From an uncultured Verrucomicrobiota bacterium (GTDB taxonomy: Bacteria > Verrucomicrobiota > Kiritimatiellia > RFP12 > UBA1067): 64,000 nt of DNA. Below are positions 1 to 59,377 of the stretch, in pieces. Each line of letters begins with the position of its first letter. The first letter of the stretch is position 1. The stretch is from assembly GCA_946610035.1 (NCBI GenBank), contig CAMOCC010000001.1, positions 35,948 through 99,947 on the forward strand, read 5' to 3'. Below the pieces are notes generated by a model that saw only the letters and a program-made list of their open reading frames with translations, was not told where the DNA came from and made no database searches. The position numbers and the translations under genes are program-made.

Positions 1-150
1 GCTGTACCTTTGGAGACGCGGCATCCTGCCGCGTCGCAGTCTGTGAGTGACGCGGCTGGAAGCCGCGTCTCCAGGACGGGTGGTGGTGATTGTTGTGACG
101 CGGCTGGAAGCCGCGTCTCCAAGGGAGAGGCCGAGCATCCCGCCGGGCCT
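1..150. repeat. Three copies (one inverted, two direct) of a ~36-48 bp palindromic repeat, core GACGCGGC-n6-GCCGCGTCTCCA. Same family as the array inside the hydrogenase large-subunit gene.
   Basis: Direct reading: tggagacgcggcatcctgccgcgtc (inverted), then 2x gtgacgcggctggaagccgcgtctccag. Each unit contains a perfect 8-bp inverted repeat. Confidence 0.8.
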
Positions 151-439
151 ACAGGGGGTTGCGTCGCTCCGCGACGCAACAAATAAGTGCCTGAAGCAAT
201 CGACCCCCATCCACGTCCTTTCTTGTTCCGTCGCGGAGCGACGGAACCCCCTTGCAATAGCTGTCGTTTGCCCATATTTCAGCGCATACACATATATAAG
301 GTATTTTTCATGCTGCTATCGACTAACGACTGACAACTAGTGACTCATTTCATTTTACATTTCCCATCTTCAGGGTTTTTAGTGGTTGCGCGAGTGGGCG
401 AATGAATTGTGGTTGGGAAGTCGACGGTTGTGAAGTCTT

Positions 440-1174
440 CTAGAGCGAGCCGGTGAAGCGGAGGAGCGCTTCAAGCGTCGTGGCCGGGTGCGGAGGGCAG
501 CCCGGGATGTAGAGGACCGGCGTCGCGGGCAGGTTGCCGCGCTCGTAGAGTCCGCCAGATATGGCACATGCGCCGGCGGCTATCAGGAACTTGGGCTCCG
601 GCGCGGCGGCGAAGGTCTTGTCGAGCGCGAGCTGCATGTTCTTCGACACTGGGCCGGTCACGTATATTGCGTCCGCATGGCGCGGCGAGGCGACGAAGCG
701 GATTCCGAACCGCCCCATGTCCCACGCAAGGGTTCCCAGTACGTTCGCATCGAGTTCGCACGCGGCGCAGCCTCCGGCGGAAACCTCGCGGAGCTGCAGC
801 GAGCGCTTCAGCGAAAGCGCGGCGGGGTCGGTCTGCTTCGGCGGCTCGTAGCCATGCTCTCCGGACTTCACGACGAGGTCCTCTCTTCTGAACACCCCGA
901 GACGGTATTCCTTCGTGAAGCGGATCTTGCCGCAGACCTCCGCGCAGCGTCCGCAGAAGATGCATCGCCCCATGTCGAGCTTCGCGCCCTCGACGTCGCG
1001 GGAAAGCGCGCCGACAACGGGGCAGACGGACTGGGCGCGCTCGACATCCTCGGCCGTGATGTCGGAGTCGATCTCGGGCCGTCCGCGGAAGTCCGGCGGA
1101 AGGTTCGGCGCGGCGGGAGGAAAGGCGCCCGTCTTGAAACCCTGTCTAAGTCGTTCGAATAAAGCCTTCAGCAT
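440..1174 (-). CDS. Group-4 hydrogenase small subunit (NuoB/HycG/HyfI-like) fused to an N-terminal 4Fe-4S ferredoxin-like segment (HyfH/HycF-like)
   Basis: N-terminal CIFCGRCAEVC (CxxCxxCxxxC). Then NuoB-type motifs GGCAACE, YVTGPV, AAGACAISGG, IPGCPPHP. ATG at 1174 follows a GACAGG spacer after the upstream gene's stop. Confidence 0.75.
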   Translation of the reverse strand: MLKALFERLRQGFKTGAFPPAAPNLPPDFRGRPEIDSDITAEDVERAQSVCPVVGALSRDVEGAKLDMGRCIFCGRCAEVCGKIRFTKEYRLGVFRREDLVVKSGEHGYEPPKQTDPAALSLKRSLQLREVSAGGCAACELDANVLGTLAWDMGRFGIRFVASPRHADAIYVTGPVSKNMQLALDKTFAAAPEPKFLIAAGACAISGGLYERGNLPATPVLYIPGCPPHPATTLEALLRFTGSL

Positions 1175-1178
1175 GGTG

Positions 1179-2462
1179 TCACCTGTCAGTTCCGCAGTAG
1201 GAGAGGTTGAATGATTTGTTGCAGATCGGGAAGTTCGATATCTGTTCGCCGCGAAGAGCGTAGGCAAGTCCCTGCCAGTTGTGGGCGGAAGGGTCCACGA
1301 TCTTGTAGCGGAGGAGTTTTCCGTCGGGATCGAAGAGTGCCGCGTGGACGAGCGGACCGCGCCAGGCGTTGACGGTTACGACGATTGTTGTGACGCGGCA
1401 AGATGCCGCGTCTCCATGACGGGTGGCGGTGATTGTTGTGACGCGGCAAGATGCCGCGTCTCCAGGGTGGGGAGCGGTGATTGTTGTGACGCGGCTGGAA
1501 GCCGCGTCTCCAGGGTGGGTGGCGGTGATTGCTGTGACGCGGCAAGATGCCGCGTCTCCAGTGTGGGGGGCGGTGATTGCTGTGACGCGGCAGGATGCCG
1601 CGTCTCCAAGGAGGGAGGCGATGCGCGCATGCGCCTCGTCTATCTCCATGCGGCGCACCAGTGCGCGCGAAAGGACGTCGCCTTGTAGCTCAGCGCTAGC
1701 GCGCCGCGCGACGCCGACGAGCCCGATTTCCTCTGCGGTCTCCTTTGGAACGACGCCTGTGCCTTCGAGCCGCTCAAGCACCGTCGGCTCCTCGAACATG
1801 AGCCTCAGCGCGCCGTCGAGATCTTTCCTGACGCGCGAGATCCACTCCGCGAGCTTCGCCTTCTTTTCGTCCGTCAGAGCCACACGCATTCCGCCAGGGA
1901 CGACCGCGTTGCGTCCGAACCTGTTTCCGCAGAGAAGCGCCGTCATGTTGAGGTATTCGCCGCGGATGCGTCCGCAGAACGACGCCGTCGGAAGGAACGC
2001 GACGTCTCCTGCGAGCGCGCCGAGATCGCCGACGTGGTTGGCGACGCGCTCGAGCTCGAGCAGCAGTTCGCGCAGGCGAAGGTCTTCGTCCGTCGGATGC
2101 TTCCCGTCGCGCGTCTCGCAGATTTCGGCGAAGCAAGTCGCCGCCGCGATCGAGGTGTCGCCCGCGCACGTCTCGGCTAGGGCGATCTGGCGGGAGCGGT
2201 TCCCGTCCGCCGCGGCAATTGCATCCTCAACGCCGCGGTGCTGGTAGCCGAGGAATATCTGGAGGTTGTATACATCCTCGCCCATGCACTGGAACCTGAA
2301 GTGCCCCGGCTCGATGACGCCGGCGTGAACGGGGCCGACGGCAACTTCGTGCGCTGACTCTCCCTTGAGCGGCGTCACGGCTTTCGGTTCGACATATCCG
2401 CCGAGCGAATCGAGAAAGGCGTTCGCTTCAGCGGCAGTTTCAAATATCTTTGTCTCGGTCAT
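1179..2462 (-). CDS. Group-4 hydrogenase / complex-I NuoD-like large subunit (HycE/HyfG/EchE-like), with an 80-aa in-frame repeat insertion
   Basis: Segments HFRFQCMGEDV, GYQHRGVEDAIA, ...VNAWRGPL.H..L...G...R.KIVDPSAHNW and C-terminal ...CGTDR match the NuoD/HycE fold. Five copies of DAASCRVTAITAPHTG are encoded by the 48-bp repeat array. Confidence 0.7.
   Translation of the reverse strand: MTETKIFETAAEANAFLDSLGGYVEPKAVTPLKGESAHEVAVGPVHAGVIEPGHFRFQCMGEDVYNLQIFLGYQHRGVEDAIAAADGNRSRQIALAETCAGDTSIAAATCFAEICETRDGKHPTDEDLRLRELLLELERVANHVGDLGALAGDVAFLPTASFCGRIRGEYLNMTALLCGNRFGRNAVVPGGMRVALTDEKKAKLAEWISRVRKDLDGALRLMFEEPTVLERLEGTGVVPKETAEEIGLVGVARRASAELQGDVLSRALVRRMEIDEAHARIASLLGDAASCRVTAITAPHTGDAASCRVTAITATHPGDAASSRVTTITAPHPGDAASCRVTTITATRHGDAASCRVTTIVVTVNAWRGPLVHAALFDPDGKLLRYKIVDPSAHNWQGLAYALRGEQISNFPICNKSFNLSYCGTDR
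1376..1622. repeat. 5 x 48-bp tandem palindromic repeat (240 bp, in frame) inside the large-subunit CDS
   Basis: Units ggtgattgttgtgacgcggcaagatgccgcgtctcca + 12 nt GGGTGG-like. Period is exactly 48. Each unit has the hairpin GACGCGGC/GCCGCGTC. Confidence 0.9.
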
Positions 2463-2478
2463 TGAAGGTGCCTTTCTG

Positions 2479-3744
2479 TCAGTTGTGCCAGGCCCCGGGA
2501 ATCGAAATGCATATGCAGGCCAGGACGCCGGACGCCACGAGGATGGCGAGCAGGGTGAATGGGACGATTAACATCTTTCCCGGAACGGGCTCGGGCTTCG
2601 CGACCGGAGTGCCCATCGTCATCGCGAGCGCGACTTTCATCATCGCCGCGAAGACGATGAAGAGAAGTGCGAGAACGAGCGCGGACATCCAGAGGGGCGC
2701 GGAGACGACGAGTCCGAGCTCGGAAGCGAACAGGACCGACGGCGGCATTCCGCAGATGAAGAGGACGCCGACGATCCACAGCGCGGAGTGTCCCTTCATG
2801 GAGACGCCGAGTCCCTGCACGGACGCGATCGCGCGCGTTCCGAAGGCGAGGAGAAGGTTGCCTGCCGTCTGGAAGAGCATCGTCTTCGTCAGTGAGTGGA
2901 AGACGATGTGCGCGAGGAGCGCTAGGCCGAGAACGGCGTCGCCTACGATTTCCCCGCCGGATATCAGGACGCCTCTGCCGGGGTCGGCCGGCGTGTGCAT
3001 GAAGATCGCGAACAGTATGACGATGAGACCCATGTGTTCGACGGACGAGTAGGCGAGTAGGCGCTTGAAGTCAGTCTGCCGCACCATGAAGACTGCCGCG
3101 ACCGCGACGGAGAGGATGCCGAAGAAGATCATCGACGCGTCGCAGAAGCCCGCGATCTCCGCCGGCATTATTTCGCGGAAGCGCGCGATCGCGAAGAACG
3201 AGCAGTTGAGGAGCGCGCCTGAGAGAAGCGCCGAGACGGGGGCGGGGGCTTCGGAGTGGGCGTCGGGGAGCCAGGTGTGGAAGGGCGCGAGGCCTGTCTT
3301 TGTTCCGTAGCCTGCGAGAATGAAGACGAAGCCGACCTTGAACCACATGCGGCAGCCTTCCGCCACGCCTTTCTCCTGGAGTTCCAGGGCGTGCATCACG
3401 AGCATGGTGCCGAATAGGGCGAGGCCGATTCCGATAGAGCAGATGAGAAGGTACTTCCACATCGCCTCAAGGGCGCCGCGGCTCCTGTGGTAGGCGATGA
3501 GCGGCGCGGAGACGAGAGTCGTAAGCTCCACCGCGACCCACATGAGCGGAAGGCTCGGGGAAAGGAGCGCAAACACCATCGCTCCGAAGAACGCCGAGAG
3601 GCATACGTAGTACGTCCGGTGCGACATGTGGTCGCCGCCTTCGCGGCGGTCGGCCTCGCGGATGTAGAACACGCTCTGCACGAGGTCGGCGACGAACAGG
3701 ACGGACGTGAGAGCGAGCATCAGTTTCTGTAGGGTTGAAATCAT
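2479..3744 (-). CDS. NuoM/NuoN-like antiporter-type membrane subunit (HyfF/HyfD-like)
   Basis: Polytopic membrane protein with the GLAPFHTWLPDAH motif typical of NuoL/M/N-family proton-translocating subunits. Confidence 0.7.
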   Translation of the reverse strand: MISTLQKLMLALTSVLFVADLVQSVFYIREADRREGGDHMSHRTYYVCLSAFFGAMVFALLSPSLPLMWVAVELTTLVSAPLIAYHRSRGALEAMWKYLLICSIGIGLALFGTMLVMHALELQEKGVAEGCRMWFKVGFVFILAGYGTKTGLAPFHTWLPDAHSEAPAPVSALLSGALLNCSFFAIARFREIMPAEIAGFCDASMIFFGILSVAVAAVFMVRQTDFKRLLAYSSVEHMGLIVILFAIFMHTPADPGRGVLISGGEIVGDAVLGLALLAHIVFHSLTKTMLFQTAGNLLLAFGTRAIASVQGLGVSMKGHSALWIVGVLFICGMPPSVLFASELGLVVSAPLWMSALVLALLFIVFAAMMKVALAMTMGTPVAKPEPVPGKMLIVPFTLLAILVASGVLACICISIPGAWHN

Positions 3745-3787: not shown

Positions 3788-4474
3788 TCAGTTCGACTGG
3801 TGCCTGTGCATAAGGTGCACGTCTCCAAGCGCGTTCAGCTTGTCCGTGTCGATGGACGAGAACGTGCGGTTGATTTGGTAGATTGCGATGCCGAGGACGA
3901 AGACGAGGACGAAGACGTCCAGCAGGATGCCAAGTTCGACGACGAGTCCGTATTCGAGCAGTATGCCCGAGCCGAAGACGGCGATTCCGTTTTCGAAGGC
4001 GAGGAATCCGAGGACCTGCGTTATCGCCTTGCGCCGCGCGCAGATGAGGAAGAGCCCCGTGCCCATCGTCGTGAACGCGACGGGGATCGCGAGCTCGGAG
4101 GCGACGGTCTCGTGGATGTGGAGGGCTTTCCCGATCGCGAAGCTCGCGGACGCGATTGCGAACGCGATGACCTGCGAGAGGCGGAATCCTACGAGCGGCT
4201 CGAGCTCGAAGTTGGCCTTTGCCCTGTCCGCTGCGTAGCGCAGGAGAATCGGCAGCGCGACGCCCTTGACGGCGCCGTTGACGAAGGCCACGGCCCATAC
4301 CCTGAAGCCCGGCGCTCCGGCGTCCGTCCAGTTCCAGAGGAGTATCGGCAATAGCCCGACCATCCATCCCTGGACAGCGACGAGGCGGATCGCCTGGCGC
4401 AGGCGTCCCGTGCCGGCGAGCACTATGTTCGTCAGAAGGAAAAGCGCGAGAAGAATTTCTGCTGTGGAAGTCAT
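3788..4474 (-). CDS. Small hydrophobic hydrogenase-4 component E-like membrane subunit (HyfE)
   Basis: 228-aa multi-TM protein. Sits between the NuoH-like and NuoN-like genes, as in hyf operons. Confidence 0.5.
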   Translation of the reverse strand: MTSTAEILLALFLLTNIVLAGTGRLRQAIRLVAVQGWMVGLLPILLWNWTDAGAPGFRVWAVAFVNGAVKGVALPILLRYAADRAKANFELEPLVGFRLSQVIAFAIASASFAIGKALHIHETVASELAIPVAFTTMGTGLFLICARRKAITQVLGFLAFENGIAVFGSGILLEYGLVVELGILLDVFVLVFVLGIAIYQINRTFSSIDTDKLNALGDVHLMHRHQSN

Positions 4475-4484
4475 TTGTGTTTCC

Positions 4485-5387
4485 TTAGAAAAGTATGTAA
4501 AGGACTGCCCCGAGCGTCGCGACCATCAGAGTGCCGAGAAGGACCTGCGGCGTCTTGAGGAAGCGCATGCGCGCGATCACGGACTCGACGATCCCGACTA
4601 GCACGGCCGTCGCAAGGATTCCTCCGAAGAGGACGACGGTCTTCGCCTCCGGTCCTATTGATAGCTTCGGAACGAGCATCGCAACGAGGAACGCGGCGAG
4701 CAGCTCGAACTTGAGCGCGGCACCGTAGAGGATGAAGGCGAGGTCTGGTCCGGCGTTGTCGAGTATCATCGCCTCGTGTATCATCGTGAGCTCGAGGTGC
4801 GTCTCGGGGTCGTCGAACGGCACGCGGCAGTTTTCGCAGAGGAGAATCGTGAAGAAGGCGACGGCGATCAGGATGAGCGAGAACGCGTGGTGCGTCCATG
4901 CCCCGCCGTCGTAGTCGCCGAGCATCCCAGGGAGATTGACGTCTCCCGAGAGGCAGACGAGGAAGCCGAGAATGACGAACACGATCGGCTCGACGAGGGC
5001 CGAGAACTGGACCTCGCGGCTCGCGCCCATTCCCTCGAACGCGCTGCCCGTGTCCAGCGCTCCGAGCACGGTGAAGAATCGTCCGGTGCCGAGAAGGTAG
5101 AAGAAGAGCGCCGCGCTGGCATGCGCGAACGTGCCCTGCCCCGGCCCCCACGGGAAGAGCATCGCCGCGATGGCCGTCGCAGCGAGCGAGACGGACGGCG
5201 CGATGTCGAAGAGCCACGTCGATGTCGTGGAGCGCGGACATGACTTGCGCATGAGCTTCGCGAGATCGAAGTAGAGGCGGAACAGCCCCGGGCCGCGGCG
5301 TCCCGCAAAGAACGCCTTCGTCTGGTTGACGATGCCGGGGAGGAGCGGCGCGAGCAGCGCAGCAAGGAGGAAGGTGAGTATGTTCAT
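4485..5387 (-). CDS. NuoH/HycD/HyfC-like membrane subunit
   Basis: Starts MNILTFLLAALLAPLLPGIVNQTKA. The ATG overlaps the upstream stop (ATGA). Multi-TM NuoH-like topology. The six-frame ORF upstream of this start is GC-rich read-through, not coding. Confidence 0.65.
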   Translation of the reverse strand: MNILTFLLAALLAPLLPGIVNQTKAFFAGRRGPGLFRLYFDLAKLMRKSCPRSTTSTWLFDIAPSVSLAATAIAAMLFPWGPGQGTFAHASAALFFYLLGTGRFFTVLGALDTGSAFEGMGASREVQFSALVEPIVFVILGFLVCLSGDVNLPGMLGDYDGGAWTHHAFSLILIAVAFFTILLCENCRVPFDDPETHLELTMIHEAMILDNAGPDLAFILYGAALKFELLAAFLVAMLVPKLSIGPEAKTVVLFGGILATAVLVGIVESVIARMRFLKTPQVLLGTLMVATLGAVLYILF

Positions 5388-7138
5388 GATGCGAAGGCGG
5401 CGACGAGAAGAACGACAACCGTGATGAGTATGAGAAGTATGTAGAGATGGAGCGATCCGCTCTGGAGGAGATGCGCACGCTGGAAGGCGCGGGCGAAGAA
5501 GGTGAAGAGCGGACGCCAGAAGCCCGCAAGCGCGCGGTCGTCCGTCTCGGTGACGAGCGCTGCGTCCGTCGGCGCGGCGGGATGTCCCTTGAACGGGATG
5601 AGGTGCTTCCGGGGCCTGAGCGCGAACGCGAAGAGGTCCGCAAGCGGCTGCGTGAACGCGGTCGCCGTGTAGGCCATGCGCGCGGTCGGCTCGTGGTAGC
5701 CGCAGTCCCAGGTAGGGCATTGCGGCTTGACCGCTCCGCGCGGACACAGGAATCGGCGCAGTCCGACGAGCGCGGCGGTCATCAGGACAAGCGCGCCTCC
5801 GATCGTCGCAGCGGTGAGGAGCGTGGCCTCGCCTATGCCGTTGGCGAACTTGTGGACGATGAAGATCGTTCCAGGGATCATCGCCACGGAACCGAGGAAC
5901 AGCGCGAGCTGGGCTATCCACATGCGCTTCGGCGTCTCGATGGCGTCTGCGGCGGCTTTGCTGCGAGGCTCGCCGAGGAAGGTCGCGCCGATCGCCTTGC
6001 AGTAGGCCGCCGCGGCGAGTCCGCCGGTGAAGGCGAGCGCCGCGAGCACGGTGAATCCGGCGGCGACGAGCAGGGGGCTGCCGGACCTGACGGCGAGGAA
6101 TCCTGCAGTGTAGATGAGGAGCTCGCCGAGGAAGCCGTTGAGCGGGGGGAGTCCGGCGAGGCCGAGCGCGTTGAGGGTGAAGAGCGTGCCTGTGAAGGGC
6201 ATGCGCTTCATGAGTCCGCCGAGCCTGTCCTGGTCGAGCGTTCCCGTCTGGCGCAGGATGGAGCCTGCGCCGAGGAAGAGCGCGCCCTTGAGGAGCGCGT
6301 GGTTCATGACGTGCACAAGCGCGCCGGTGAAGGAGAGGACATAGATCTCGGAGAAGAGCGAGCCGCCGTCGCGCGAGTTCGCGACGAGGGCGAGCCCGAG
6401 ACCCATGGCTATGACGCCCATGTTCTCGACGGACGAAAAGGCGAGGAGCTTCTTCAGGTTGACCTGCGGGAGGGCGAAGAGGATTCCGCCTATTGCTCCT
6501 GCGACACCGAGCGCGATAAGGGTGAGACCGGCGGTCGTGTTGTATGGAACGACTGTGCTGACTGGCCAGAAAAAGTTGAGAAGGCCGTAGAAGCCGAGGG
6601 GGATCATCGCGCCGGACATGACGGCGGAGGCGGGGGCCGGGGCGGCGGGATGCGCTTCAGGGAGCCAAACATGGAACGGCGGGAAGCCTATCTTGAGTCC
6701 GAAACCGACGATTGCGCAGAAGAACGCGGCGAGAAAGGCGTCCGGACTATTGAGGAACACGCCCGCGAGCATGAGCGCGCACGCGCCCGCGTGGCACGCG
6801 AGGAGGTAGATCCATGTCGCCCTGCGTACGGTTTTTTCGGTGTTTTCGAAGGCGACGAGTCCGGCCGAGGAGAGCCCCATCGCCTCCCAGGCGAGGAGAA
6901 ACGAAATCTTGCCGGGCGCATAGACGACGGCGAGCATGGACGCCAAAGTCGCCAAAAAGAAGGCCCAGAAGCGGGGAAGGTGATTTTTCGCCTCGCCGTG
7001 AAGGTAGGCGGTCGCATGCAGCGCGGCCGCCGCGCCGACGGCTGCGATAGGCAGTGTGAATAGAAGTTTTGTCTGCACGATAATGATCCCGGTTTGAAGA
7101 AGACCGCATATTATACTCTTATGCGCCGATTCTGGCAA
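5384..7138 (-). CDS. NuoL/HycC/HyfB-like large antiporter-type membrane subunit (exact start uncertain)
   Basis: Motifs FPPFHVWLPEAHPAAPAPASA, KKLLAFSSVENMG and many TM helices. First gene of the minus-strand operon. Confidence 0.7.
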   Translation of the reverse strand: MPESAHKSIICGLLQTGIIIVQTKLLFTLPIAAVGAAAALHATAYLHGEAKNHLPRFWAFFLATLASMLAVVYAPGKISFLLAWEAMGLSSAGLVAFENTEKTVRRATWIYLLACHAGACALMLAGVFLNSPDAFLAAFFCAIVGFGLKIGFPPFHVWLPEAHPAAPAPASAVMSGAMIPLGFYGLLNFFWPVSTVVPYNTTAGLTLIALGVAGAIGGILFALPQVNLKKLLAFSSVENMGVIAMGLGLALVANSRDGGSLFSEIYVLSFTGALVHVMNHALLKGALFLGAGSILRQTGTLDQDRLGGLMKRMPFTGTLFTLNALGLAGLPPLNGFLGELLIYTAGFLAVRSGSPLLVAAGFTVLAALAFTGGLAAAAYCKAIGATFLGEPRSKAAADAIETPKRMWIAQLALFLGSVAMIPGTIFIVHKFANGIGEATLLTAATIGGALVLMTAALVGLRRFLCPRGAVKPQCPTWDCGYHEPTARMAYTATAFTQPLADLFAFALRPRKHLIPFKGHPAAPTDAALVTETDDRALAGFWRPLFTFFARAFQRAHLLQSGSLHLYILLILITVVVLLVAAFAS

Positions 7139-9976: not shown

Positions 9977-11887
9977 ATGGCATTCGGTTTTCTCAAGAAG
10001 ATCGTCTCCGCCCTCTCCGGCGGCAAGAAGCCGGAGAAGGGCGGGAAGTCCGACCGACAGGGCCAGGGCGGCGACGGCAAGGGCCGTCGCGGCAGGCGCG
10101 GCGGGAAGGACGGCGCGAAGCAGCAGGGCGGCCGCGGCGACAAGCAGCCGCAGGGCCGTCGCGGCGACAAGCAGCCGCAGGGCGATCAGAAGAAGTCGCG
10201 CGACGGGCAGCAGCCGCGCGGCGAGCGTCGTTCGGAGGGGCGCGGGCAGAAGGCGCGTCGCGACGACAGGCGCGGCGGCAGGGGCGATCGCGGCAGGCGC
10301 GGTCCGGCGCCGGTGAACACGGCGGCGGGCGAGATGCGCCCGGGCGGCGAGGTTTCGTCAGCCGAGCTTGAGGCCCGCAAGGCCGCCCACGCGGCCTGGG
10401 ACCCGGCGTCGTTCGTGGTCGAGCCCGCCGAGGGCAAGAAGCGCTTCCACGATTTCGACCTTCCCTCCGAGGTGATGCACGGCATAGCCGACCTCGGCTT
10501 CAAGTACTGCACCGAGATACAGGCTCTTTCGCTCGAGCAGGCGCTCGCCGGCAAGAACATCGCCGGCAAGGCCCAGACCGGCAGCGGCAAGACGGCCGCG
10601 TTCCTCGTGGCGATACTGACCCGCTACCTCAGGACGCCCGAGAGCCGCGCCAAGACGGGCGGCACTCCGCGTGCGCTCGTGATCGCGCCCACGCGCGAAC
10701 TCGTCATCCAGATTTGCAAGGACGCCGATGCGATCGGCAGGTACTGCGGACTTAGGTCCCTCGCAATCTACGGCGGGATGGACTACGACCGCCAGAAGCG
10801 CGAGGTATCCGACGCTCCCGTCGACCTTCTCGTCGCGACCCCCGGCCGACTCCTCGACTTCGTCAAGTCGCACGTGATCAACCTCTCGAGCGTCGACACG
10901 CTCGTCATCGACGAGGCGGACCGCATGCTCGACATGGGCTTCATCCCGGACGTCCGCCGCATAATGAGCTATCTGCCGCCGAAGAACAAGCGCGCGACGA
11001 TGCTCTACTCCGCGACGCTCAACGACACGGTGATGCGCCTTGCGATGAACTGGATGGAGGAGCCGTTCAAGGCCGAGGTCGCAAGCGAGACCAACGCGAC
11101 GGACACCGTCCGCCAGGTCGTGTACATCGTACGCTCCGACGACAAGTTCAAGGTCCTTTTCAACCACATCGCCCTCCACCCGGAGGCGCGCGCGATCGTC
11201 TTCTGCAACCGCAAGTCGACGACCGAGGACGTCTACGACTCGCTGCGCGTGCGCGGCGTGAACGTCGAGATGCTCTCGGGCGACGTCAACCAGAACAAGC
11301 GCCTCAAGGTGCTCGACGCGTTCAGGGACGGAGAGGTGAAGGTCGTGGTGGCGACTGACGTCGCAGGCCGCGGAATCGACATCAAGGGACTCGAGTACGT
11401 GATCAACTTCGACTTCCCCTACGAAGCCGAGGACTACGTGCACCGCATCGGCCGCACGGGCCGCGCGGGCTCGACCGGAATCGCGATCAGCTTCGCGGAC
11501 GAGGACGAGAGCTTCGCGATCCCCGAGATCGAGGAGTACATCAAGGAGCCCCTCAAGTGCACGATGATCCAGGACGACGACCCGCTCCTGAAGCCTCTTC
11601 CCGCCCGCGGTACGAGGCTCGGCGACGTCGACGCCTCGGCGAAGGCCGAAGTCGACGCGCGCGAGGCCGTCGGCGAGGAGGAGATTGCCGCCGCGGCGGC
11701 GCTCACAGGCGTCGCGAACGCGACGACGGCGAGCGGGGCCCCTGCGGTGCTGAAGGAGGACGCGCCCATGCGGACGCTCCCTAAGTTCGAGAACGCGCTG
11801 GAGCCGAAGGCCCCGCCGCCGGACGAATCGGACGTCTATTCCAAGCCGGTCGAGCAGAAAACGAAGCTCGAGGAGTGGAAAATGTGA
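9977..11887 (+). CDS. DEAD-box ATP-dependent RNA helicase with ~130-aa N-terminal Gly/Arg/Lys/Gln-rich low-complexity extension
   Basis: Motifs AQTGSGKT, PTRELV, DEAD (VIDEADRMLDMGF), SAT, HRIGRTGRAG. Confidence 0.85.
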   Translation: MAFGFLKKIVSALSGGKKPEKGGKSDRQGQGGDGKGRRGRRGGKDGAKQQGGRGDKQPQGRRGDKQPQGDQKKSRDGQQPRGERRSEGRGQKARRDDRRGGRGDRGRRGPAPVNTAAGEMRPGGEVSSAELEARKAAHAAWDPASFVVEPAEGKKRFHDFDLPSEVMHGIADLGFKYCTEIQALSLEQALAGKNIAGKAQTGSGKTAAFLVAILTRYLRTPESRAKTGGTPRALVIAPTRELVIQICKDADAIGRYCGLRSLAIYGGMDYDRQKREVSDAPVDLLVATPGRLLDFVKSHVINLSSVDTLVIDEADRMLDMGFIPDVRRIMSYLPPKNKRATMLYSATLNDTVMRLAMNWMEEPFKAEVASETNATDTVRQVVYIVRSDDKFKVLFNHIALHPEARAIVFCNRKSTTEDVYDSLRVRGVNVEMLSGDVNQNKRLKVLDAFRDGEVKVVVATDVAGRGIDIKGLEYVINFDFPYEAEDYVHRIGRTGRAGSTGIAISFADEDESFAIPEIEEYIKEPLKCTMIQDDDPLLKPLPARGTRLGDVDASAKAEVDAREAVGEEEIAAAAALTGVANATTASGAPAVLKEDAPMRTLPKFENALEPKAPPPDESDVYSKPVEQKTKLEEWKM

Positions 11888-22740: not shown

Positions 22741-24689
22741 AGGCCGATTTCGGGATAGGTGAATTGAAGTCCGCGCTGGAGTCCGGCTACGGCGTCGCGG
22801 TAGCCGCCCTTGAGCGGCTTCCCGGGCACGCCCATTCGATAAACTTCAAGGTCGCGACGGAAGACGGAGCGGCCTTCGCCGCGAAGTGCTTCCCCGCCGC
22901 CCACGTGTCGATGTTCGAGCGCCTTCTCGCGCACACCGCCCCTTCGGAGAATCCCCTCGCGGTGACGCGTCTCTTCGACGGGCGCATACTCGAGTTCGGA
23001 TCGTGGCGGATCGCGGCGCTCAAGTGGATCCCGGGCGGACGCAAATACCCGGATGAACTTACTGACGCGGAGGCGGATGAATTCCTCTCCGCATACGGCG
23101 CCTTCGCCGCCGGGTTGAAGGACGACGGATTCATAATGCCCGTCCGGGACGGCCTTGCGCTCAAGCGGAAGCTCATCGAGCGGCTGAAGGGCGGCAATGC
23201 GCCCGCGATCGTGCGTGAACTGAAGCTCATGCCGGACGACACGCTCTCGCTCGCACCGGAGGCGAGGCGGATCATCCACGGCGACCTCCACTGGGAGAAC
23301 TTCAGGTTCGAGGGCGGCAGGGTGAGCGGCTTCCTCGACTTGGAGGCGCTCAGGTTCGGGACGCCGGCGGAGGATTTTGTCCGCTACATAGTCTGCCGCG
23401 CCGAGCACCTCAGGTGGTACGATCTCGGTGGACGGCGCAGGCTGCTCGATGCGTTCCGCATGTTCCTCGCCCGGACGTCCCTTACGCGTGCGGAGTGGCT
23501 TTTCGCAATCGACGGCTACCTCCTCAGGAAGCTCGACAAGAAGATCAAGGCGAGGCGCGTCCCGCTGGCGACGAGGATAAACCTCGGGGCGCGATTCGGC
23601 TTCTACCGCGAACTGAGGGACGAGGTGTATCGCGCCATGCCGCACGTACGCACGGACGACCGGACTGTAGTCAAGATTCTTGGCGGGACGGTCAAGCGCT
23701 TCATGGGCGGACGCGTCTTCGACTGGGGCGGGAGGTTCCGCTTCGTCTGCGATCCCGCCTGCCGCGACTACGACTGGCTGTGCGTCTACGACGAGCTGCC
23801 GAACGCGTACCCGGGGGTGGTGCGCGGGAGGATGCGCGTGGAGTGTCCGAGGGGGCGGACGATCCTCGCCACGCAGGAGCCGGTGTCCGTCAAGTTCTAC
23901 AACAAGGCGTATACGCGCCAGTTCGGAGTCCTCCTCACGAACCGTCCGCCCGAGGCCGAGGGCCATCCCGGCTACGTGAAGGGCGAGGGGTACATGGTCT
24001 GGTACACCGGTCGCAGCTTCGCCGGGGAGCGCGCACACGAGGTCCCGGAGAAGACGAAGGTCCTCTCCGCCGTCTATTCGGCAAAGCGCATGGCGCATAC
24101 GCGCCATGCGGACCGCTACCGCTTCCTGGAGCTTCTCAGGCGCGAGGTGTCCGGCTTCGACTGGTTCGGGAAGGGCGTGAAGCCCATCGAGGAGAAGTCC
24201 GACGCCCTGGACGGCTACAAGTACACGATTGCCTTCGAGAACCACATCGGCGCGGGGCATTGGACGGAGAAGCTTTCTGACGCGCTGGTCGCGGGATGCC
24301 TTCCGTTCTACGCGGGCGATCCGGAGGTCGGGCGCATACTTCCGCCGGACTGCTTCATCCCGATTCCGGCGGACGACCCCGACGCGGCGCTTGCAATCGT
24401 GAAGAAGGCGATTGCCGAAGGCGAGTACGGGCGGCGGCGCGACGCGATAATGAAGGCGAGGGAGCTTCTGATGACGAAGTACAACCTCTTCGCCCAGATC
24501 GAGAAGGCATGCGAATGGAAAATGGAAAATGTAAAATGTAAAATGGAAAATGGGGAATGGGGAATGGACGAGCCTTCGTGCTGCATTTGCACGCGCAGGC
24601 ATACGAGGCTGTATCCGAGCGCGGCCGTTGCAGATTTGACGCATCACATCAAGAGATTGTTAAAGAGAAGTCCGGGAGGAACGCCATGA
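22738..24689 (+). CDS. Fusion protein: APH/choline-kinase-like phosphotransferase domain + GT10 (alpha-1,3-fucosyltransferase-type) domain. The 3' end contains a 7-nt repeat tract.
   Basis: IIHGDLHWENFRF (HGDLHxxN kinase motif). YKYTIAFENHIGAGHWTEKLSDALVAGCLPFYAGD matches the GT10 signature (Y-K-[FY]-x-[IL]-AFEN...TEK). ATGA overlap at both ends. Confidence 0.65.
24513..24568. repeat. Heptanucleotide tandem repeat (GAATGGA/AAATGGA/AAATGTA) x8 at the 3' end of the kinase-GT10 gene
   Basis: gaatgga aaatgga aaatgta aaatgta aaatgga aaatggg gaatggg gaatgga. AT-rich tract in a GC-rich gene. Unit length is not a multiple of 3. Confidence 0.85.
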
Positions 24690-26824: not shown

Positions 26825-28225
26825 TTGTCCGTGGCTACCAATTTCAAGACAAGGCTTATACGGCTTGCGACGGCGCTCATCCCTGCAAAGGGGGTGAGGA
26901 AGCGCATTCGCAGGCGGCTTCTGGACCGCGAGCGCGACGAAAGGGTTGCGCTGACTCTGCCGGGGGTCCGTGCCCGCTACGCCGCGCACGAGGCCGCGTG
27001 CCGTGCGAAGCTTGCGCGCGGCGAGCGGCTGTCAGTCGCCTTCCTCGTCTGCGACGCGTCCATGTTCTCGGGCGAGCCCGTCTTCCTGAAGATGCGCGAC
27101 GACGCGCGCTTCAGGCCGTTCATCGCCGTCGCCCCGCGCGTGACGAGGGGAGACGAATTCCTGCGCGAAACGCTCGACAAGACCGCGGGTGCGCTGGAAG
27201 GGCGCTATCCGGGGGCGGTGGTGCGGCTCTACGACCCCGCCACCGGGCGGAGGGAGCGCCTTGATGCGGACGTCGTTTTCTCCACCGTGCTCTACGAGGA
27301 CCAGACGTATCCCGACTGGACGACTGAGAGGCTTTCGGAACGCTCGCTTGTCGCGATACTCTACTACGGCTACGGCGGACTCTTCTTCACGAACGAGAGG
27401 AAGACGCCGTTCCTCCCGAACATCGTCCTCTCCTGGCGCTATTTCGTGTCCAACGAGGCGACCAGGGCGATGAGCGCCGCAAAGAACCCGCTCCTCTCGC
27501 ACAACACGTTCGCCGTAGGCTACTGCAAGATGGACAGGCTAGAAGAATGTAAAATGGAAAATGGAAAATGTAAAATGGGAAGAGGCGAATGCAGTGTAGG
27601 ACTTGCACCGGGGCCTGCGAGGAAGAAGGTGATGATATGTCCGCACCACTCCATAGACAGGGAGGCGGACGGCCTCGCGCTTTCGACGTTCCTCGAGCAT
27701 GCGGACCTCTTCAGGCGCCTTCCCGCGATGTTTCCGGATGTCGATTTCGTGTTCAGACCGCATCCGCTCCTCTTTCCGAGGCTCGCGACGGCGAAGTGGT
27801 GGGGGCCCGAGAGGACGGCCCGCTACGCGGCGGAGATGGAGGCGCATCCGAACGTGGAGTTCCAGAGGGGCGGCGACTACTTCGCGACGTTCGCCGGGTC
27901 GGACGCGCTCATCCACGACTGCGGGTCGTTCCTGGCGGAGTATTTCTACACGGGGAAGCCGCAGTGCTACATGCTGGCGGACGACGCCACGGTGGAGCGG
28001 CAGTTTCTGCCGTTCGCGAGGCGGCTTCTCGACCACGTGGAGCGCGCGTACACAGACGACGACATCGTCGCCTTCGTGCGACGGGTGGTCCTGGCGGGCG
28101 ACGATCCGCGCAAGGCGGGGAGGGAGGACTTCGCGGCGCGCGAGGTGTGCGTGAACCATCCGCATGCGGCGGCGGGCGTCGTCGATGCGGTTGTGAAGGG
28201 AATCAAACAAGAGGAGGTCAAATAA
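26825..28225 (+). CDS. TagF/TagB-like CDP-glycerol glycerophosphotransferase family protein (start TTG 26825 or GTG 26831). Internal 7-nt repeat tract.
   Basis: C-terminal half carries KKVMICPHHSID...FRPHPLLFPR motifs reminiscent of the Glyphos_transf domain. Low certainty on family. Confidence 0.4.
   Translation: MSVATNFKTRLIRLATALIPAKGVRKRIRRRLLDRERDERVALTLPGVRARYAAHEAACRAKLARGERLSVAFLVCDASMFSGEPVFLKMRDDARFRPFIAVAPRVTRGDEFLRETLDKTAGALEGRYPGAVVRLYDPATGRRERLDADVVFSTVLYEDQTYPDWTTERLSERSLVAILYYGYGGLFFTNERKTPFLPNIVLSWRYFVSNEATRAMSAAKNPLLSHNTFAVGYCKMDRLEECKMENGKCKMGRGECSVGLAPGPARKKVMICPHHSIDREADGLALSTFLEHADLFRRLPAMFPDVDFVFRPHPLLFPRLATAKWWGPERTARYAAEMEAHPNVEFQRGGDYFATFAGSDALIHDCGSFLAEYFYTGKPQCYMLADDATVERQFLPFARRLLDHVERAYTDDDIVAFVRRVVLAGDDPRKAGREDFAAREVCVNHPHAAAGVVDAVVKGIKQEEVK
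27545..27593. repeat. Heptanucleotide tandem repeat (GAATGTA/AAATGGA) x5-7 inside the TagF-like CDS, between its N- and C-terminal domains
   Basis: gaatgta aaatgga aaatgga aaatgta aaatggg (aagaggc gaatgca). Same repeat family as 24513-24568. Confidence 0.85.
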
Positions 28226-42106: not shown

Positions 42107-43216
42107 CTAACAGACATCGCTGCAAAGCGGCGGAATGGCCCGCATCATAGAGTCCCTTAACGCTGACAGGGACGGTTGAGTGTATCGTGAGTGCATTCCT
42201 CCTCCGCCATGACCGGTGATGGCATCGGTAATGTGGGGCGGGATGCCGGCCTCGTCCATCATTGATATGAATGTCGCTCGCAACGAATGAAAAGAGGCCC
42301 GTCCCGCCCCGATTTGCATCACTCCGCACCTCCTAAAGGCATTTGCAAGTCGTCTTGACGGTCGATTTCTTACGGAATCCGGGAATATGTATCCTTTCTC
42401 CGTCATTCTGGCCTTGATGGCCTCCCCAGCCTCCCTTATTAGAGGTATAATGAGAGGGCGTGGCTTTTTCAAGCGCGTTTTGTTGGGGACGATTCTGAGA
42501 AATTTCCCTCCATCTGCTATTTCGGACGCTTCGAGCTCGGTTACATCCGATAGCCGCAATCCTGTGCCGAAGCCAATGGCCATCACGGCGGACATATCCT
42601 GGTCGTTTTCTCGCAAGTATTCATATATTGAGCTGGCTTCTGCCAGGGAGAGTCTTCTATAGAACTCTCTGGACCTGCTTCCAGCTGCTAGATTTCTGGA
42701 TTGTTGTGGACCGAGGTCCCATATTGAGTCGTCCAGCCCGACTGCTTGCCAGCATCGCCTATAGAAAGAAACCATACGTCGACATGATACGTATCTAGCC
42801 GACAACTCGTCCGAAATCGCAGCCGCCATTGACGGTGTCAGCTCGGACGGGCTTCCTTGACACTTCTCCATGGCAATTTGGTGAAGAATCTCGAGCCAGC
42901 GCGTGTGAGTCGGCTCTTCTTTGATGCACCGGGCGTCAATGACCACAGGAAGCGACAGTGCGCCCAGATTGTCCCAGTTGACGGATTTAGCAGCATTAAG
43001 AACCCTTAGCCTTTGTTCTGCGTCGCGCCCAAGGTTCTTAAGGTGCCTTAACCACTCCAACTCGCTCTGCGATTGGGGTATGAAGGCTCGCGCACGGATA
43101 CGCGCGACTTCGATATCGCCTGTTTTCAGTGAGAACCAGCGTATGCGGCCCTCGGTTCTTACTACATAGTAGAGCATTCTGCCCTTGCGTTGTATTGATC
43201 CACATTGAATTTTCAT
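42107..43216 (-). CDS. Tyrosine site-specific recombinase (integrase/invertase family)
   Basis: GLRLSDVTEL (box I Arg), KTRLKKPRPLIIP (Lys), HSLRATFISMM (H-x-x-R), ITGH, MHSRYTQ (Tyr nucleophile). Confidence 0.85.
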   Translation of the reverse strand: MKIQCGSIQRKGRMLYYVVRTEGRIRWFSLKTGDIEVARIRARAFIPQSQSELEWLRHLKNLGRDAEQRLRVLNAAKSVNWDNLGALSLPVVIDARCIKEEPTHTRWLEILHQIAMEKCQGSPSELTPSMAAAISDELSARYVSCRRMVSFYRRCWQAVGLDDSIWDLGPQQSRNLAAGSRSREFYRRLSLAEASSIYEYLRENDQDMSAVMAIGFGTGLRLSDVTELEASEIADGGKFLRIVPNKTRLKKPRPLIIPLIREAGEAIKARMTEKGYIFPDSVRNRPSRRLANAFRRCGVMQIGAGRASFHSLRATFISMMDEAGIPPHITDAITGHGGGGMHSRYTQPSLSALRDSMMRAIPPLCSDVC

Positions 43217-57715: not shown

Positions 57716-58303
57716 ATGGACGACAGGACATGGTATGAACTCGTGAAGGCCGGGGAGGACGCCGGCTGGAAGCTCGTATGGGAGCGGGTCGTGGAGCCCG
57801 AGTCGCGATCCATGAGGTCCGCCGAGCTGATGAACCGCTACTCCCTGACGGCGGGGGACTTGATGGGGATGCTCTTCGACGACATGATAGGCCGCAGGAA
57901 GATAGACCTCTACCGGGGCGAAGGCAGCTTCCAGGGGTGGCTTAGGACCTACGTGCGCGGGTATGTGCTGAATGCGGACCCCAACAAGCACGGCGAAATC
58001 TCCATAGAGGGCGCACATGCGGACGCCGAGGACGTTCCCACCGGCCTGGAGCTGCCGTCCGACGACAAGAAGGTGATGATGAACGAGGTGTGGCAGATGA
58101 CCCACCTCTGCTTCAAGGACCTGTGGAACCAGGACCCGGAAAGGGCGTATGTGATGCTCCTGAAGACGCGCTTCCACTTCTCAAGCGAGGAGGTGCGGGA
58201 CTTCCTCGACGTGTCGTCCGCCGCGAATGTGGACCAGATATTCTCCCGCGCGGTGAAGTTCATGCGCCAGGACTGGGTGGTGCGTGACAAAAAAGGCATG
58301 TAG
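57716..58303 (+). CDS. ECF-type sigma-70 family factor (candidate)
   Basis: Region-2-like LTAGDLMGMLFDDMIGRRKIDLYRGEGSFQGWLRTYVRGYVLN and region-4-like HFSSEEVRDFLDVSSAANVDQIFSRAVKFMRQ. Confidence 0.45.
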   Translation: MDDRTWYELVKAGEDAGWKLVWERVVEPESRSMRSAELMNRYSLTAGDLMGMLFDDMIGRRKIDLYRGEGSFQGWLRTYVRGYVLNADPNKHGEISIEGAHADAEDVPTGLELPSDDKKVMMNEVWQMTHLCFKDLWNQDPERAYVMLLKTRFHFSSEEVRDFLDVSSAANVDQIFSRAVKFMRQDWVVRDKKGM

Positions 58304-58392
58304 CAACAACAAAAAAAACTTGTCAGAAATCGGCATTGAATTGACCTAACCTTGTGTAACCGCAAAAAGCGGAGAAAGAAAGAGGTGAAGAA

Positions 58393-58875
58393 ATGAACAG
58401 GAAAATGACAGCTTTGGTCGCAATTGCGGCCGTTATGTGCGCGAGCGTCGGTCTCGCACGCCCCCATGGCGGACCCGGTCCGCGCGGCTTCGGCGGTCCG
58501 CGCGTGGTGCACGGCGGTGGACACCACCACCACCACTACAGCACCTGGGGCCGCGGCGGGCGCAACTTCTGGCCCGGCTTCGTGGGCGGCGTCGTTGGCG
58601 GGATGCTGACGGACGTCGTGGTCGGACCGAGGACGACCTATGTCTCGACCCCGACCGTCGTCGCGACGCCCACCGTGGTCGCGGCGCCCGCACCGGTCGT
58701 CGTCCAGCAGCCGGTCGTGGTGCAGCAGCCCGCGCCGGTCGTCGTCCAGCAGCCGGTCGTCGTCAACCAGAACGTCTGGGTCGAGGGGCGCTACGTGGAC
58801 CAGGTGCAGGCGAACGGAACTGTGATCCGCGTCTGGCAGCCGGGACACTACGAACAGCGCCAGATCGTCCAGTAA
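58393..58875 (+). CDS. Secreted low-complexity protein with His run (HHHHH) and (PVVVQQ)n repeats
   Basis: Signal peptide. GGHHHHHYSTWGRGG. 4x PxVVVQQ encoded by near-identical 18-nt DNA repeats. Confidence 0.5.
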   Translation: MNRKMTALVAIAAVMCASVGLARPHGGPGPRGFGGPRVVHGGGHHHHHYSTWGRGGRNFWPGFVGGVVGGMLTDVVVGPRTTYVSTPTVVATPTVVAAPAPVVVQQPVVVQQPAPVVVQQPVVVNQNVWVEGRYVDQVQANGTVIRVWQPGHYEQRQIVQ

Positions 58876-58879
58876 GCGG

Positions 58880-59377
58880 ATGGTCGTACTCGGCGTAGAC
58901 ACGTCGCTGCGCTCGACTGGCTACGGGGTCCTCGAAACAAACGGGAACCGCCACAGGGCGCTCGACTACGGGAACATTCCGAACGGACCCAAGGCGTCCG
59001 TCTCGGAATGTCTTTCCGCCATTCATGCGAAGATAGCCGGACTCATCGAAGCGTGGCGTCCGGACGTCCTGAGCGTCGAGAAGGTGATCTACGGGAAGAA
59101 CGCCAACACGATGATGGTCCTGGGCGAGGCCAGGGGGGCGGTCATCGTCGCCGGGGCCGAGGCGAAGCTCCCGATATACGAGTACGAGCCGAGGCGGGTC
59201 AAGATGTCCGTCTGCGGCAACGGCATGGCGGAGAAGGGGCAGGTCCAGCGAATGGTGAAGACGCTCCTTGCGCTTCCGGAGGTTCCGCAGAACGATGCGG
59301 CGGACGCCCTGGCGCTTGCGATATGCCATGCCCATTCTAAGACGCTGCTGTCCGTCGGCGGAGGATCGCTGGTATGA
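58880..59377 (+). CDS. ruvC: Holliday junction resolvase RuvC
   Basis: VLGVDTSLRSTGYGV, EKVIYGKN, NDAADALALAICHA. Confidence 0.85.
   Translation: MVVLGVDTSLRSTGYGVLETNGNRHRALDYGNIPNGPKASVSECLSAIHAKIAGLIEAWRPDVLSVEKVIYGKNANTMMVLGEARGAVIVAGAEAKLPIYEYEPRRVKMSVCGNGMAEKGQVQRMVKTLLALPEVPQNDAADALALAICHAHSKTLLSVGGGSLV

Follow-up and report, generated by a model that had tools for sequence, protein, structure and literature searches.

An in-frame array of REP-type palindromes in a NuoD/HycE-like gene of an uncultured Kiritimatiellia bacterium

The array and its host gene

The subject of this report is an array of short palindromic repeats that lies in frame inside a gene of an uncultured Verrucomicrobiota bacterium of the class Kiritimatiellia. 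The stretch of DNA that was analysed, hereafter the window, comprises 64,000 nucleotides of contig CAMOCC010000001.1 (assembly GCA_946610035.1). An earlier note on the window had described a 48-bp palindromic repeat array, in frame, within the coding sequence at positions 1179-2462, and Tandem Repeats Finder, a count of the repeat cores and the reading of the open reading frame (ORF) all confirmed it. One strong tandem array is present in the region (1383-1620, period 48, 5.0 copies, 88% matches, 0% indels, score 364). The note had parsed it as five 48-bp units that add 80 residues; the repeat stands, while its extent is better described as four 48-bp units and a 27-bp terminal core, which together encode 73 residues. 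The gene and the parts of the array are as follows.

1179-2462, minus strand: host gene, encoding a NuoD/HycE-fold subunit of 427 amino acids (Pfam Complex1_49kDa PF00346, E 3e-20)
1389-1607, minus strand: in-frame array of repetitive extragenic palindrome (REP) elements, codons 286-358 of the ORF at 1179-2462, 73 amino acids
1560-1607, 1512-1559, 1464-1511 and 1416-1463, minus strand: the four 48-bp units, designated L
1389-1415, minus strand: the terminal 27-bp core, designated T, fused directly to the native codons for IVVTVNAWRG

Each L unit consists of a 27-bp core, GGAGACGCGGC-NNNNN-GCCGCGTCACA, and a 21-nt spacer. Palindromy is confined to the 21-27 bp core of each unit, and thus the hairpin of the "palindromic 48-bp repeat" is real while the unit as a whole is not a palindrome. 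The 64-kb window contains the core pattern GACGCGGC-N5-GCCGCGTC eight times, always within positions 15-1604, with five copies at 1392-1604 in exact 48-bp spacing and the other three at 15-117. The expected count in shuffled sequence is 0.22, and none of 100 shuffles reached eight. A census of perfect hairpins in the window revealed very few others away from these cores. The core can form a 9-bp stem with a 3-nt loop or, alternatively, an 8-bp stem with a 5-nt loop, and a single core folded as DNA gave -12.2 to -12.4 kcal/mol (z -5.7 to -6.3). The units differ from one another in sequence, with loops of ATCCT, ATCTT or TTCCA and several variants of the spacer. ORFs on both strands and in several frames pass through the array; the core is free of stop codons in all six frames and is read here as GDAASCRVT. 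Two other identities for the cores were rejected. A known RNA family was ruled out by an Rfam scan of positions 1-3000, which returned only sub-threshold hairpin look-alikes (miRNA models that scored 26-28 bits where the gathering scores are 67-124), and intrinsic terminators were ruled out by the lack of a T-run after the stems.

The host protein was modelled with AlphaFold (pTM, the predicted template modelling score, 0.76), and the top Foldseek hits of the model were 7z0s_E (HycE of formate hydrogenlyase), 49-kDa subunits of complex I and 6cfw_L (MbhL), each with a probability of 1.00. Together with the match to PF00346, these hits bear out the NuoD/HycE fold that the earlier note had proposed. 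The predicted local distance difference test score (pLDDT) falls below 50 for residues 288-352, which lie between a confident helix at 263-285 and a confident strand at 357-366. Given this low confidence and the variability in length of the protein family at the same site, the array is probably a tolerated, solvent-exposed loop, which is the simplest of the readings that the note had offered. Most units encode a cysteine, corresponding to the loop-closing codon of the hairpin, and the residue varies among C, R and S, which argues against a role in metal binding.

The note's description of the gene as encoding a hydrogenase large subunit and essential catalytic subunit did not hold. When the protein was aligned to HycE (7z0s_E), ETCAGD was opposite RVCGIC and NLSYCG was opposite DPCYSC. 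Of the N- and C-terminal CxxC pairs that mark a group 4 [NiFe]-hydrogenase large subunit, an identity that is thereby not supported, the protein has just the very first cysteine in this comparison; the other three [NiFe] ligands are lacking, and this state is invariant in 77 relatives. The protein also scored far below the cut-off of every NCBIfam equivalog. Because the [NiFe] ligands are missing, the label "hydrogenase catalytic subunit" is not supported and appears to be a misnomer for what, by sequence, is a NuoD/Ehr-like subunit. About 150 alignment columns are invariant across the 77 family members. The most conserved N-terminal segment is residues 35-73 (GPVHAGVIEPGHFRFQCMGEDVYNLQIFLGYQHRG), yet its pLDDT is below 50 in the monomer model, and it probably folds only against partner subunits.

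Orthologous arrays, related copies and surrounding genes

The closest orthologues are 88-94% identical to the host protein outside the array, and all of them have a REP at the same codon position. A metagenome scan for orthologues yielded three close relatives, and the comparison was widened by look-ups of exact proteins. Nine orthologous loci display eight array forms with one to five cores each. In the list below, loci other than the window carry our own numbers, T and L have the meanings given above, and S is a 33-bp unit.

L070: T
L071/L072 and L033: L+T (two loci)
L069: S+T
L029: L+S+T
L068: LLT
L067: LLLT
L031/L022: LSSST
Window: LLLLT, the longest 48-bp form seen

The host protein of the window is a net 64 amino acids longer than the shortest orthologue (363 amino acids) and about 50 longer than repeat-free relatives (374-378 amino acids). 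The reading frame is intact at all nine loci, and dN/dS (the ratio of nonsynonymous to synonymous substitution rates) in the flanks of close orthologues is 0.125-0.152. Since pairs with a flank dS of only 0.07-0.12 already differ in their arrays, the array changes faster than synonymous sites do.

In orthologues with 60-80% identity, the array site is taken up by linkers that are unrelated, non-repetitive and variable in length. The segment is therefore not an ancestral domain; the earlier note had named an ancestral, non-repetitive segment of 80 residues shared by orthologues as something that would overturn its account, and the orthologue alignment ruled this out, with unrelated linkers in distant relatives and variable arrays in close ones. 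A 78% identical orthologue (L075, at about 3870-3905) carries a relic of an S unit at the same codon position. The relic matches at 27 of 34 nt, a score that none of 5000 shuffles equalled; it has lost the 5' arm of the stem and encodes QGDSSARRVSP. Another of these more distant orthologues (L076) shows a weaker match. Judging from such matches, old copies evidently decay into ordinary linker sequence.

The two types of unit differ in composition. The S unit is made up of the REP and its own flanks, and tandem groups with a 33-bp period occur in non-coding DNA as well. The spacer of the L unit, ACAACAATCACCGCCACC, agrees at 14 of 18 positions with ACAGCAATAGTCGCCACC (T-A-I-V-A-T), the native codons just after the terminal core. 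Because the spacer resembles the codons directly after the core, the L unit looks like a tandem duplication of the core plus adjacent host codons and not like a fresh insertion.

The note had also placed three further copies of the element, one of them inverted, at positions 1-150 downstream of the operon, and these were found at 15-35 (inverted), 49-69 and 97-117 within the following feature.

11-121, no strand assigned: cluster of the main REP element, intergenic, downstream of the minus-strand operon

The cluster comprises an inverted core at 11-39 and direct cores at 47-73 and 95-121. Its first two cores form an inverted dimer (11-73) that could fold into one long hairpin (-32.6 kcal/mol as DNA). 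A distance of 48 bp separates the two direct cores, and between them (73-96) is a copy of the 21-24 nt L spacer of the gene with one mismatch to the consensus. The L spacer was found only in orthologues of the host gene and this once outside them, and the extragenic copy also has about 14 nt of the 5' flank of the gene in common. Moreover, the third unit in the gene has the TTCCA loop of the extragenic copies, which no other orthologue array has. The sharing of spacer and flank with positions 73-96 and of the TTCCA loop with the third unit points to patchy exchange of sequence between the in-gene and extragenic copies, which are 1.3 kb apart.

The scan of the window's own genome reached 73 kb, and the evidence for dispersal comes from related metagenome-assembled genomes (MAGs). 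The exact 22-nt core pattern was found at 25 loci in six or more MAGs of uncultured Kiritimatiellae or "Verrucomicrobia" from rumen and gut; MAG202 contributes at least 8 of these loci and Tb.RUG.298 at least 12. One additional match, in Streptomyces, is unrelated and was taken as chance. The commonest form in the MAGs, which the dimer at 11-73 of the window shares, is an inverted dimer, GGAGACGCGGCATCCTGCCGCGTC-13 nt-GACGCGGCTGGAAGCCGCGTCTCC, with the two copies 34 nt apart and outside credible genes. There are also short groups in direct orientation, in which the period is 33, 51 or 65 bp. Credible genes contain only 3 of about 24 REP loci, and the element is thus mostly non-coding. In the window and at the 25 MAG loci alike, the core ends in ...GCCGCGTC, with a terminal CGTC, and is followed by a TCCA tail; a GTAG tag is absent from the core and flanks. 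By its sequence and distribution the element is a dispersed REP, as the note had suspected. At three loci (L013 1690-1720, L018 2640-2670 and L020 1760-1790) the same coding-like fragment, ...THTYFYDGWLL(V/I)KE, precedes the REP cluster, which suggests a remnant of an RHS/YD-repeat gene and hints at a repeated gene fragment associated with REPs.

The element also occurs in frame in other genes. In a MutS gene of Tb.RUG.298 (L021 3282-3404, JAEEOY010000021), the same REP lies in frame as 3 x 51 bp in the opposite orientation and is read as AVTRQDAASPCVGGALG. The copies are within the domain III region of this MutS protein, which totals 1042 amino acids and has a C-terminal staphylococcal-nuclease-like domain. 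In a gene for undecaprenyl-diphosphate synthase (UppS) of MAG202 (L019 4837-4894, JAEDKA010000027), an inverted REP dimer is in frame, contributes about 22 residues and is read as WRRGILPRHEDQNPTRQDAASP. In both proteins the Pfam architecture is complete. Counted across the NuoD-like, MutS and UppS genes, the frames or orientations in which the core is read number at least three. Other intragenic candidates (L002, L005, L010-L012, L015-L017 and L023) were rejected as spurious-looking ORFs (Arg-rich; one that was tested had no Pfam hit) or as cases in which the REP is upstream of the real start.

A different repeat occupies the NuoD-like gene in one related lineage. In L073 and L074 (P0031/P0036, 65% identical by BLASTP), an unrelated heptamer hairpin, (GGTAGAT)n/(ATCTACC)n, lies in frame in two loops, one of which is the same site as that of the array in the window. 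The heptamer repeats are at 10340-10450, 10915-10980 and 11189-11526 in L074 and at 6372-6494 in L073, with peptides such as RWQMVDG...TNYQLP, and the heptamers additionally make up an inverted repeat of 340 bp that separates the NuoD-like gene from the NuoB-like one.

The host gene is part of an operon of six genes, all intact, which by gene content encodes a Hyf/Ehr-like membrane complex. The other five genes, and a second REP family in the same intergenic region as the cluster at 11-121, are listed here.

440-1174, minus strand: HycF/NuoI-like 4Fe-4S part fused to a NuoB-like part, 244 amino acids, downstream gene of the operon
2479-3744, minus strand: antiporter-like gene, upstream in the operon
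3788-4474, minus strand: HyfE-like gene, upstream in the operon
4485-5387, minus strand: NuoH-like gene, upstream in the operon
5384-7078, minus strand: antiporter-like gene, upstream in the operon
153-252, no strand assigned: a second REP family, distinct from the main one, as an inverted dimer; stems GTTGCGTCGC/GCGACGCAAC and GTTCCGTCGC/GCGACGGAAC

Dimers of the second family are flanked by G5/C5 runs, and another is located beyond the start of the window (L027 12497-12592), such that the three main-element cores in the 626-bp intergenic region downstream of the operon have one of these dimers on each side. Heptamer arrays of AATGGAA/AATGTAA at 24514-24568, 27544-27591 and about 340-365 (reverse complement) recur at or just past the 3' ends of genes, and one of them separates the REP cluster from the end of the NuoB-like gene. 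Farther into the window, a phage-type integrase gene (42107-43216, minus strand) that is unrelated to the repeats lies in a stretch at 42-46 kb where the GC content is 0.53-0.56, compared with about 0.63 elsewhere; this region may be a small integrated element. No tRNA genes were found in the window. Overlapping 42-bp and 18-bp tandem repeats at 58642-58774, inside an ORF on the minus strand without a Pfam match (57949-58902), are probably a coding repeat rich in proline, valine and glutamine.

Origin of the array and competing explanations

An intragenic array of this kind raises the question of how it arose and whether it serves a purpose. We consider it quite probable that the array is a selfish or neutral coding minisatellite derived from the REP and housed in a permissive loop. 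A REP stem-loop (8-9 bp GC-rich stem, CGTC end and TCCA tail) would have lodged in a length-variable linker of the NuoD/HycE-like gene, namely the one between the last long helix and the C-terminal beta-sheet. Since stop codons are absent from all six frames of the core, it would simply have been translated once embedded. Local head-to-tail multiplication would have followed, for which the most economical mechanism appears to be slippage during replication or unequal recombination among cores prone to form hairpins, and two unit types would have arisen, one of 33 bp (REP and its own flanks) and one of 48 bp (core and 21 nt of duplicated native coding sequence). The 73 encoded residues would form a disordered loop that the protein tolerates, with the gene remaining under purifying selection as the array changes faster. 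Over longer times, copies would decay to ordinary linker, and sequence may be swapped with nearby extragenic copies.

Several observations weigh against this account. No member of the clade was found with an empty site, and the insertion event is thus reconstructed and not observed. Among about 35 ORFs scanned in the 64-kb window, there was no transposase of the RAYT (REP-associated tyrosine transposase) or IS200-like (Y1_Tnp) kind. The surface exposure of the loop is deduced solely from the low pLDDT and the variability of the family. Non-coding arrays, too, have periods of 33 and 51 bp, and a period that is a multiple of three is by itself no proof of selection for an open frame, an argument that we abandoned for this reason. 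Finally, a different array in each lineage would also be expected from diversifying selection on loop length.

An alternative role for the array is at the level of the mRNA, where five stable stem-loops of the polycistronic message might slow ribosomes or block 3'-5' exonucleases, such that copy number would tune the ratio of the membrane subunits and the NuoD-like protein to the downstream NuoB-like subunit. The 281-nt array region folded as RNA gave -120.6 kcal/mol (z -6.55), and none of 200 shuffles was as good. REPs downstream of ORFs are generally thought to be RNA stabilisers (PMC3733652), and the stems are intact in most in-gene copies despite their variable loops. Intracistronic hairpins, however, are unwound by translating ribosomes, and the copy number ranges from one to five among close relatives without a compensating change nearby. 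The stems decay in older copies, as in the GATGCGGC...GCCGCGTC variants and the L075 relic, the same element is present in MutS and UppS genes that share no common regulatory logic, and no Rfam family was matched at threshold. We therefore regard a role in the mRNA as unlikely.

Another possibility is that the array is a selected, tunable protein linker, that is, a coding variable number tandem repeat (VNTR) on which diversifying selection acts, with the assembly or activity of the complex depending on its length or cysteine content. Such selection would account for an array that differs in every sampled lineage, even at a flank dS of about 0.07-0.1, for a frame that is always kept and for the cysteine encoded by most units. 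The position of that cysteine is nevertheless filled by C, R or S, since its codon closes the loop of the hairpin; disorder is predicted for the repeat peptide, and distant relatives function with unrelated short linkers. Moreover, other proteins contain this DNA element in different reading frames, so the peptide seems to be a by-product of the DNA repeat. Taken together, these points make a selected linker distinctly improbable.

The earlier note had itself raised assembly artefact and recent inactivation of the gene as possible explanations, and neither was borne out. The window comes from a 111.5-kb ENA metagenome scaffold (sample SAMN02144230, assembly ERZ28612940, scaffold_307) built from short reads, assemblers have difficulty with arrays of 48-bp units, and several related contigs break off at REP arrays (L013 and L016), so units might have been wrongly duplicated or collapsed by the assembler. 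Against this, each of the five units has its own substitutions in the loop and spacer, the exact 427-residue protein is present on two contigs, and arrays at the same site were recovered in independent assemblies from different studies, samples and assemblers, which leaves very little room for an artefact. That the gene is a recent pseudogene is hardly credible, for although a 73-residue foreign segment interrupts a conserved fold and three of four [NiFe] ligands are missing, the ligand loss is invariant across the 77 family members and hence a trait of the family and not a sign of decay, the flanks are under purifying selection at the dN/dS given above, there are no stops or frameshifts, and the six-gene operon is whole.

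A broader proposal is that palindromic repeats in Kiritimatiellae of the rumen and gut may be an active, recurrent source of new protein sequence, in that the CGTC-like REP would colonise permissive loops of housekeeping proteins (NuoD-like, MutS and UppS), amplify in them as a coding minisatellite, swap sequence with extragenic copies and turn by decay into ordinary linker; the unrelated heptamer hairpin in two loops of the NuoD-like gene of L073 and L074 would be a parallel case. We put this forward as a speculation that we ourselves rate as doubtful. Were it true, all the stages from fresh array to relic would be obtainable from public metagenomes, and if the arrays were also selected, for loop length or for mRNA structure, they would be a free-living counterpart of the palindromic elements of Rickettsia.

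Relation to known repeat systems

Some known systems resemble the array and can be set aside. A CRISPR array (short palindromic repeats, clustered and regularly interspaced) likewise has regularly spaced palindromic repeats, and was ruled out here by the near-identical "spacers", the periods of 48 and 33 bp, the location inside a conserved ORF and the absence of cas genes nearby, with no cas domains among the window ORFs scanned. A MITE, or miniature inverted-repeat transposable element, was ruled out since the element is a single stem-loop whose aligned flanks are without a target-site duplication, and a phase-variable contingency locus was ruled out since the frame is preserved in every one of the eight array forms, whose units measure 33 or 48 bp. 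Coding minisatellites, or in-frame VNTRs, are closer; as in those, the unit is a multiple of three, copy number varies among close relatives and a disordered segment is encoded. The difference is that the unit here derives from a palindrome dispersed through the genome and not from the gene's own sequence alone.

REP doublets that form hairpins (REPINs) and bacterial interspersed mosaic elements (BIMEs) are reportedly mobilised by RAYT transposases, as is said to have been described by Bertels and Rainey in 2011 and by Nunvar et al. in 2010. Both kinds of element and their mobilisation are also summarised in PMC3733652. Like them, the element of the window includes dispersed inverted REP doublets that can be folded into one long hairpin, whereas it has no GTAG tag, no RAYT was found among the ORFs scanned in the 64-kb window and the in-gene array is direct.

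A second relevant group is the Rickettsia palindromic elements (RPEs), whose original reports are said to be those of Ogata and colleagues. Their occurrence in frame within protein-coding genes is reviewed in PMC10969869. Both the RPEs and the element described here appear to be selfish palindromic repeats that lie in frame in conserved housekeeping genes (here NuoD-like, MutS and UppS), are translated and occupy sites compatible with the fold. Classical RPEs, however, are about 100-150 bp long, occur as single insertions, encode a conserved peptide module and reside in obligate intracellular hosts. In contrast, the element here has a core of 27-33 bp, is tandem, varies in copy number between lineages, is read in several frames and belongs to free-living anaerobes of the gut and rumen.

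The closest relatives appear to be the CGTC-tagged REPs (Di Nocera et al. 2013, BMC Genomics 14:522), a class that includes Neisseria dRS3 and Rickettsia RPE-4 and RPE-6 and for which no dedicated transposase is known (PMC3733652). Our element fits the published description of this class, for which four consensus families (CGTC-1 to CGTC-4) have been given. Both have a short stem-loop rich in GC (stem 8-9 bp, loop 3-5 nt), CGTC at one end of the stem and then a CCA-like unpaired tail (here TCCA), and both are dispersed, mostly intergenic and, in their dispersed copies, typically arranged as inverted dimers, with some translated copies in genes, often of DNA repair (here MutS). Intragenic REPs of the class are known, including clusters that encode 43-82 residues and a bias toward DNA-repair genes (PMC3733652). 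The earlier note had called an in-frame expansion unusual; the expansion is real, but the term overstates the case, as both intragenic REPs (PMC3733652) and in-frame Rickettsia elements (PMC10969869) have been published, and no new kind of system is revealed here.

What the array does offer is a view of one gene family in which the stages by which a seemingly selfish DNA palindrome turns into protein can be followed, from single cores through arrays of one to five, the capture of host codons and an extragenic copy of the spacer to relics. Such arrays also have practical consequences, in that they break assemblies, inflate variation in protein length and can mislead annotation. Published CGTC REPs are mainly inverted (head-to-head) dimers with negligible head-to-tail copies, and they are listed from five phyla, with the PVC (Planctomycetes-Verrucomicrobia-Chlamydiae) group not among them (PMC3733652). 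In the present case the in-gene arrays are purely head-to-tail, while the dispersed copies are mostly inverted dimers 34 nt apart, and the 48-bp unit incorporates duplicated host codons. CGTC-type and intragenic REPs are thus extended to an uncultured rumen lineage of the PVC group, and what is new is this host lineage, the head-to-tail organisation within the gene, the captured host codons and a series that runs from one to five cores to a relic.

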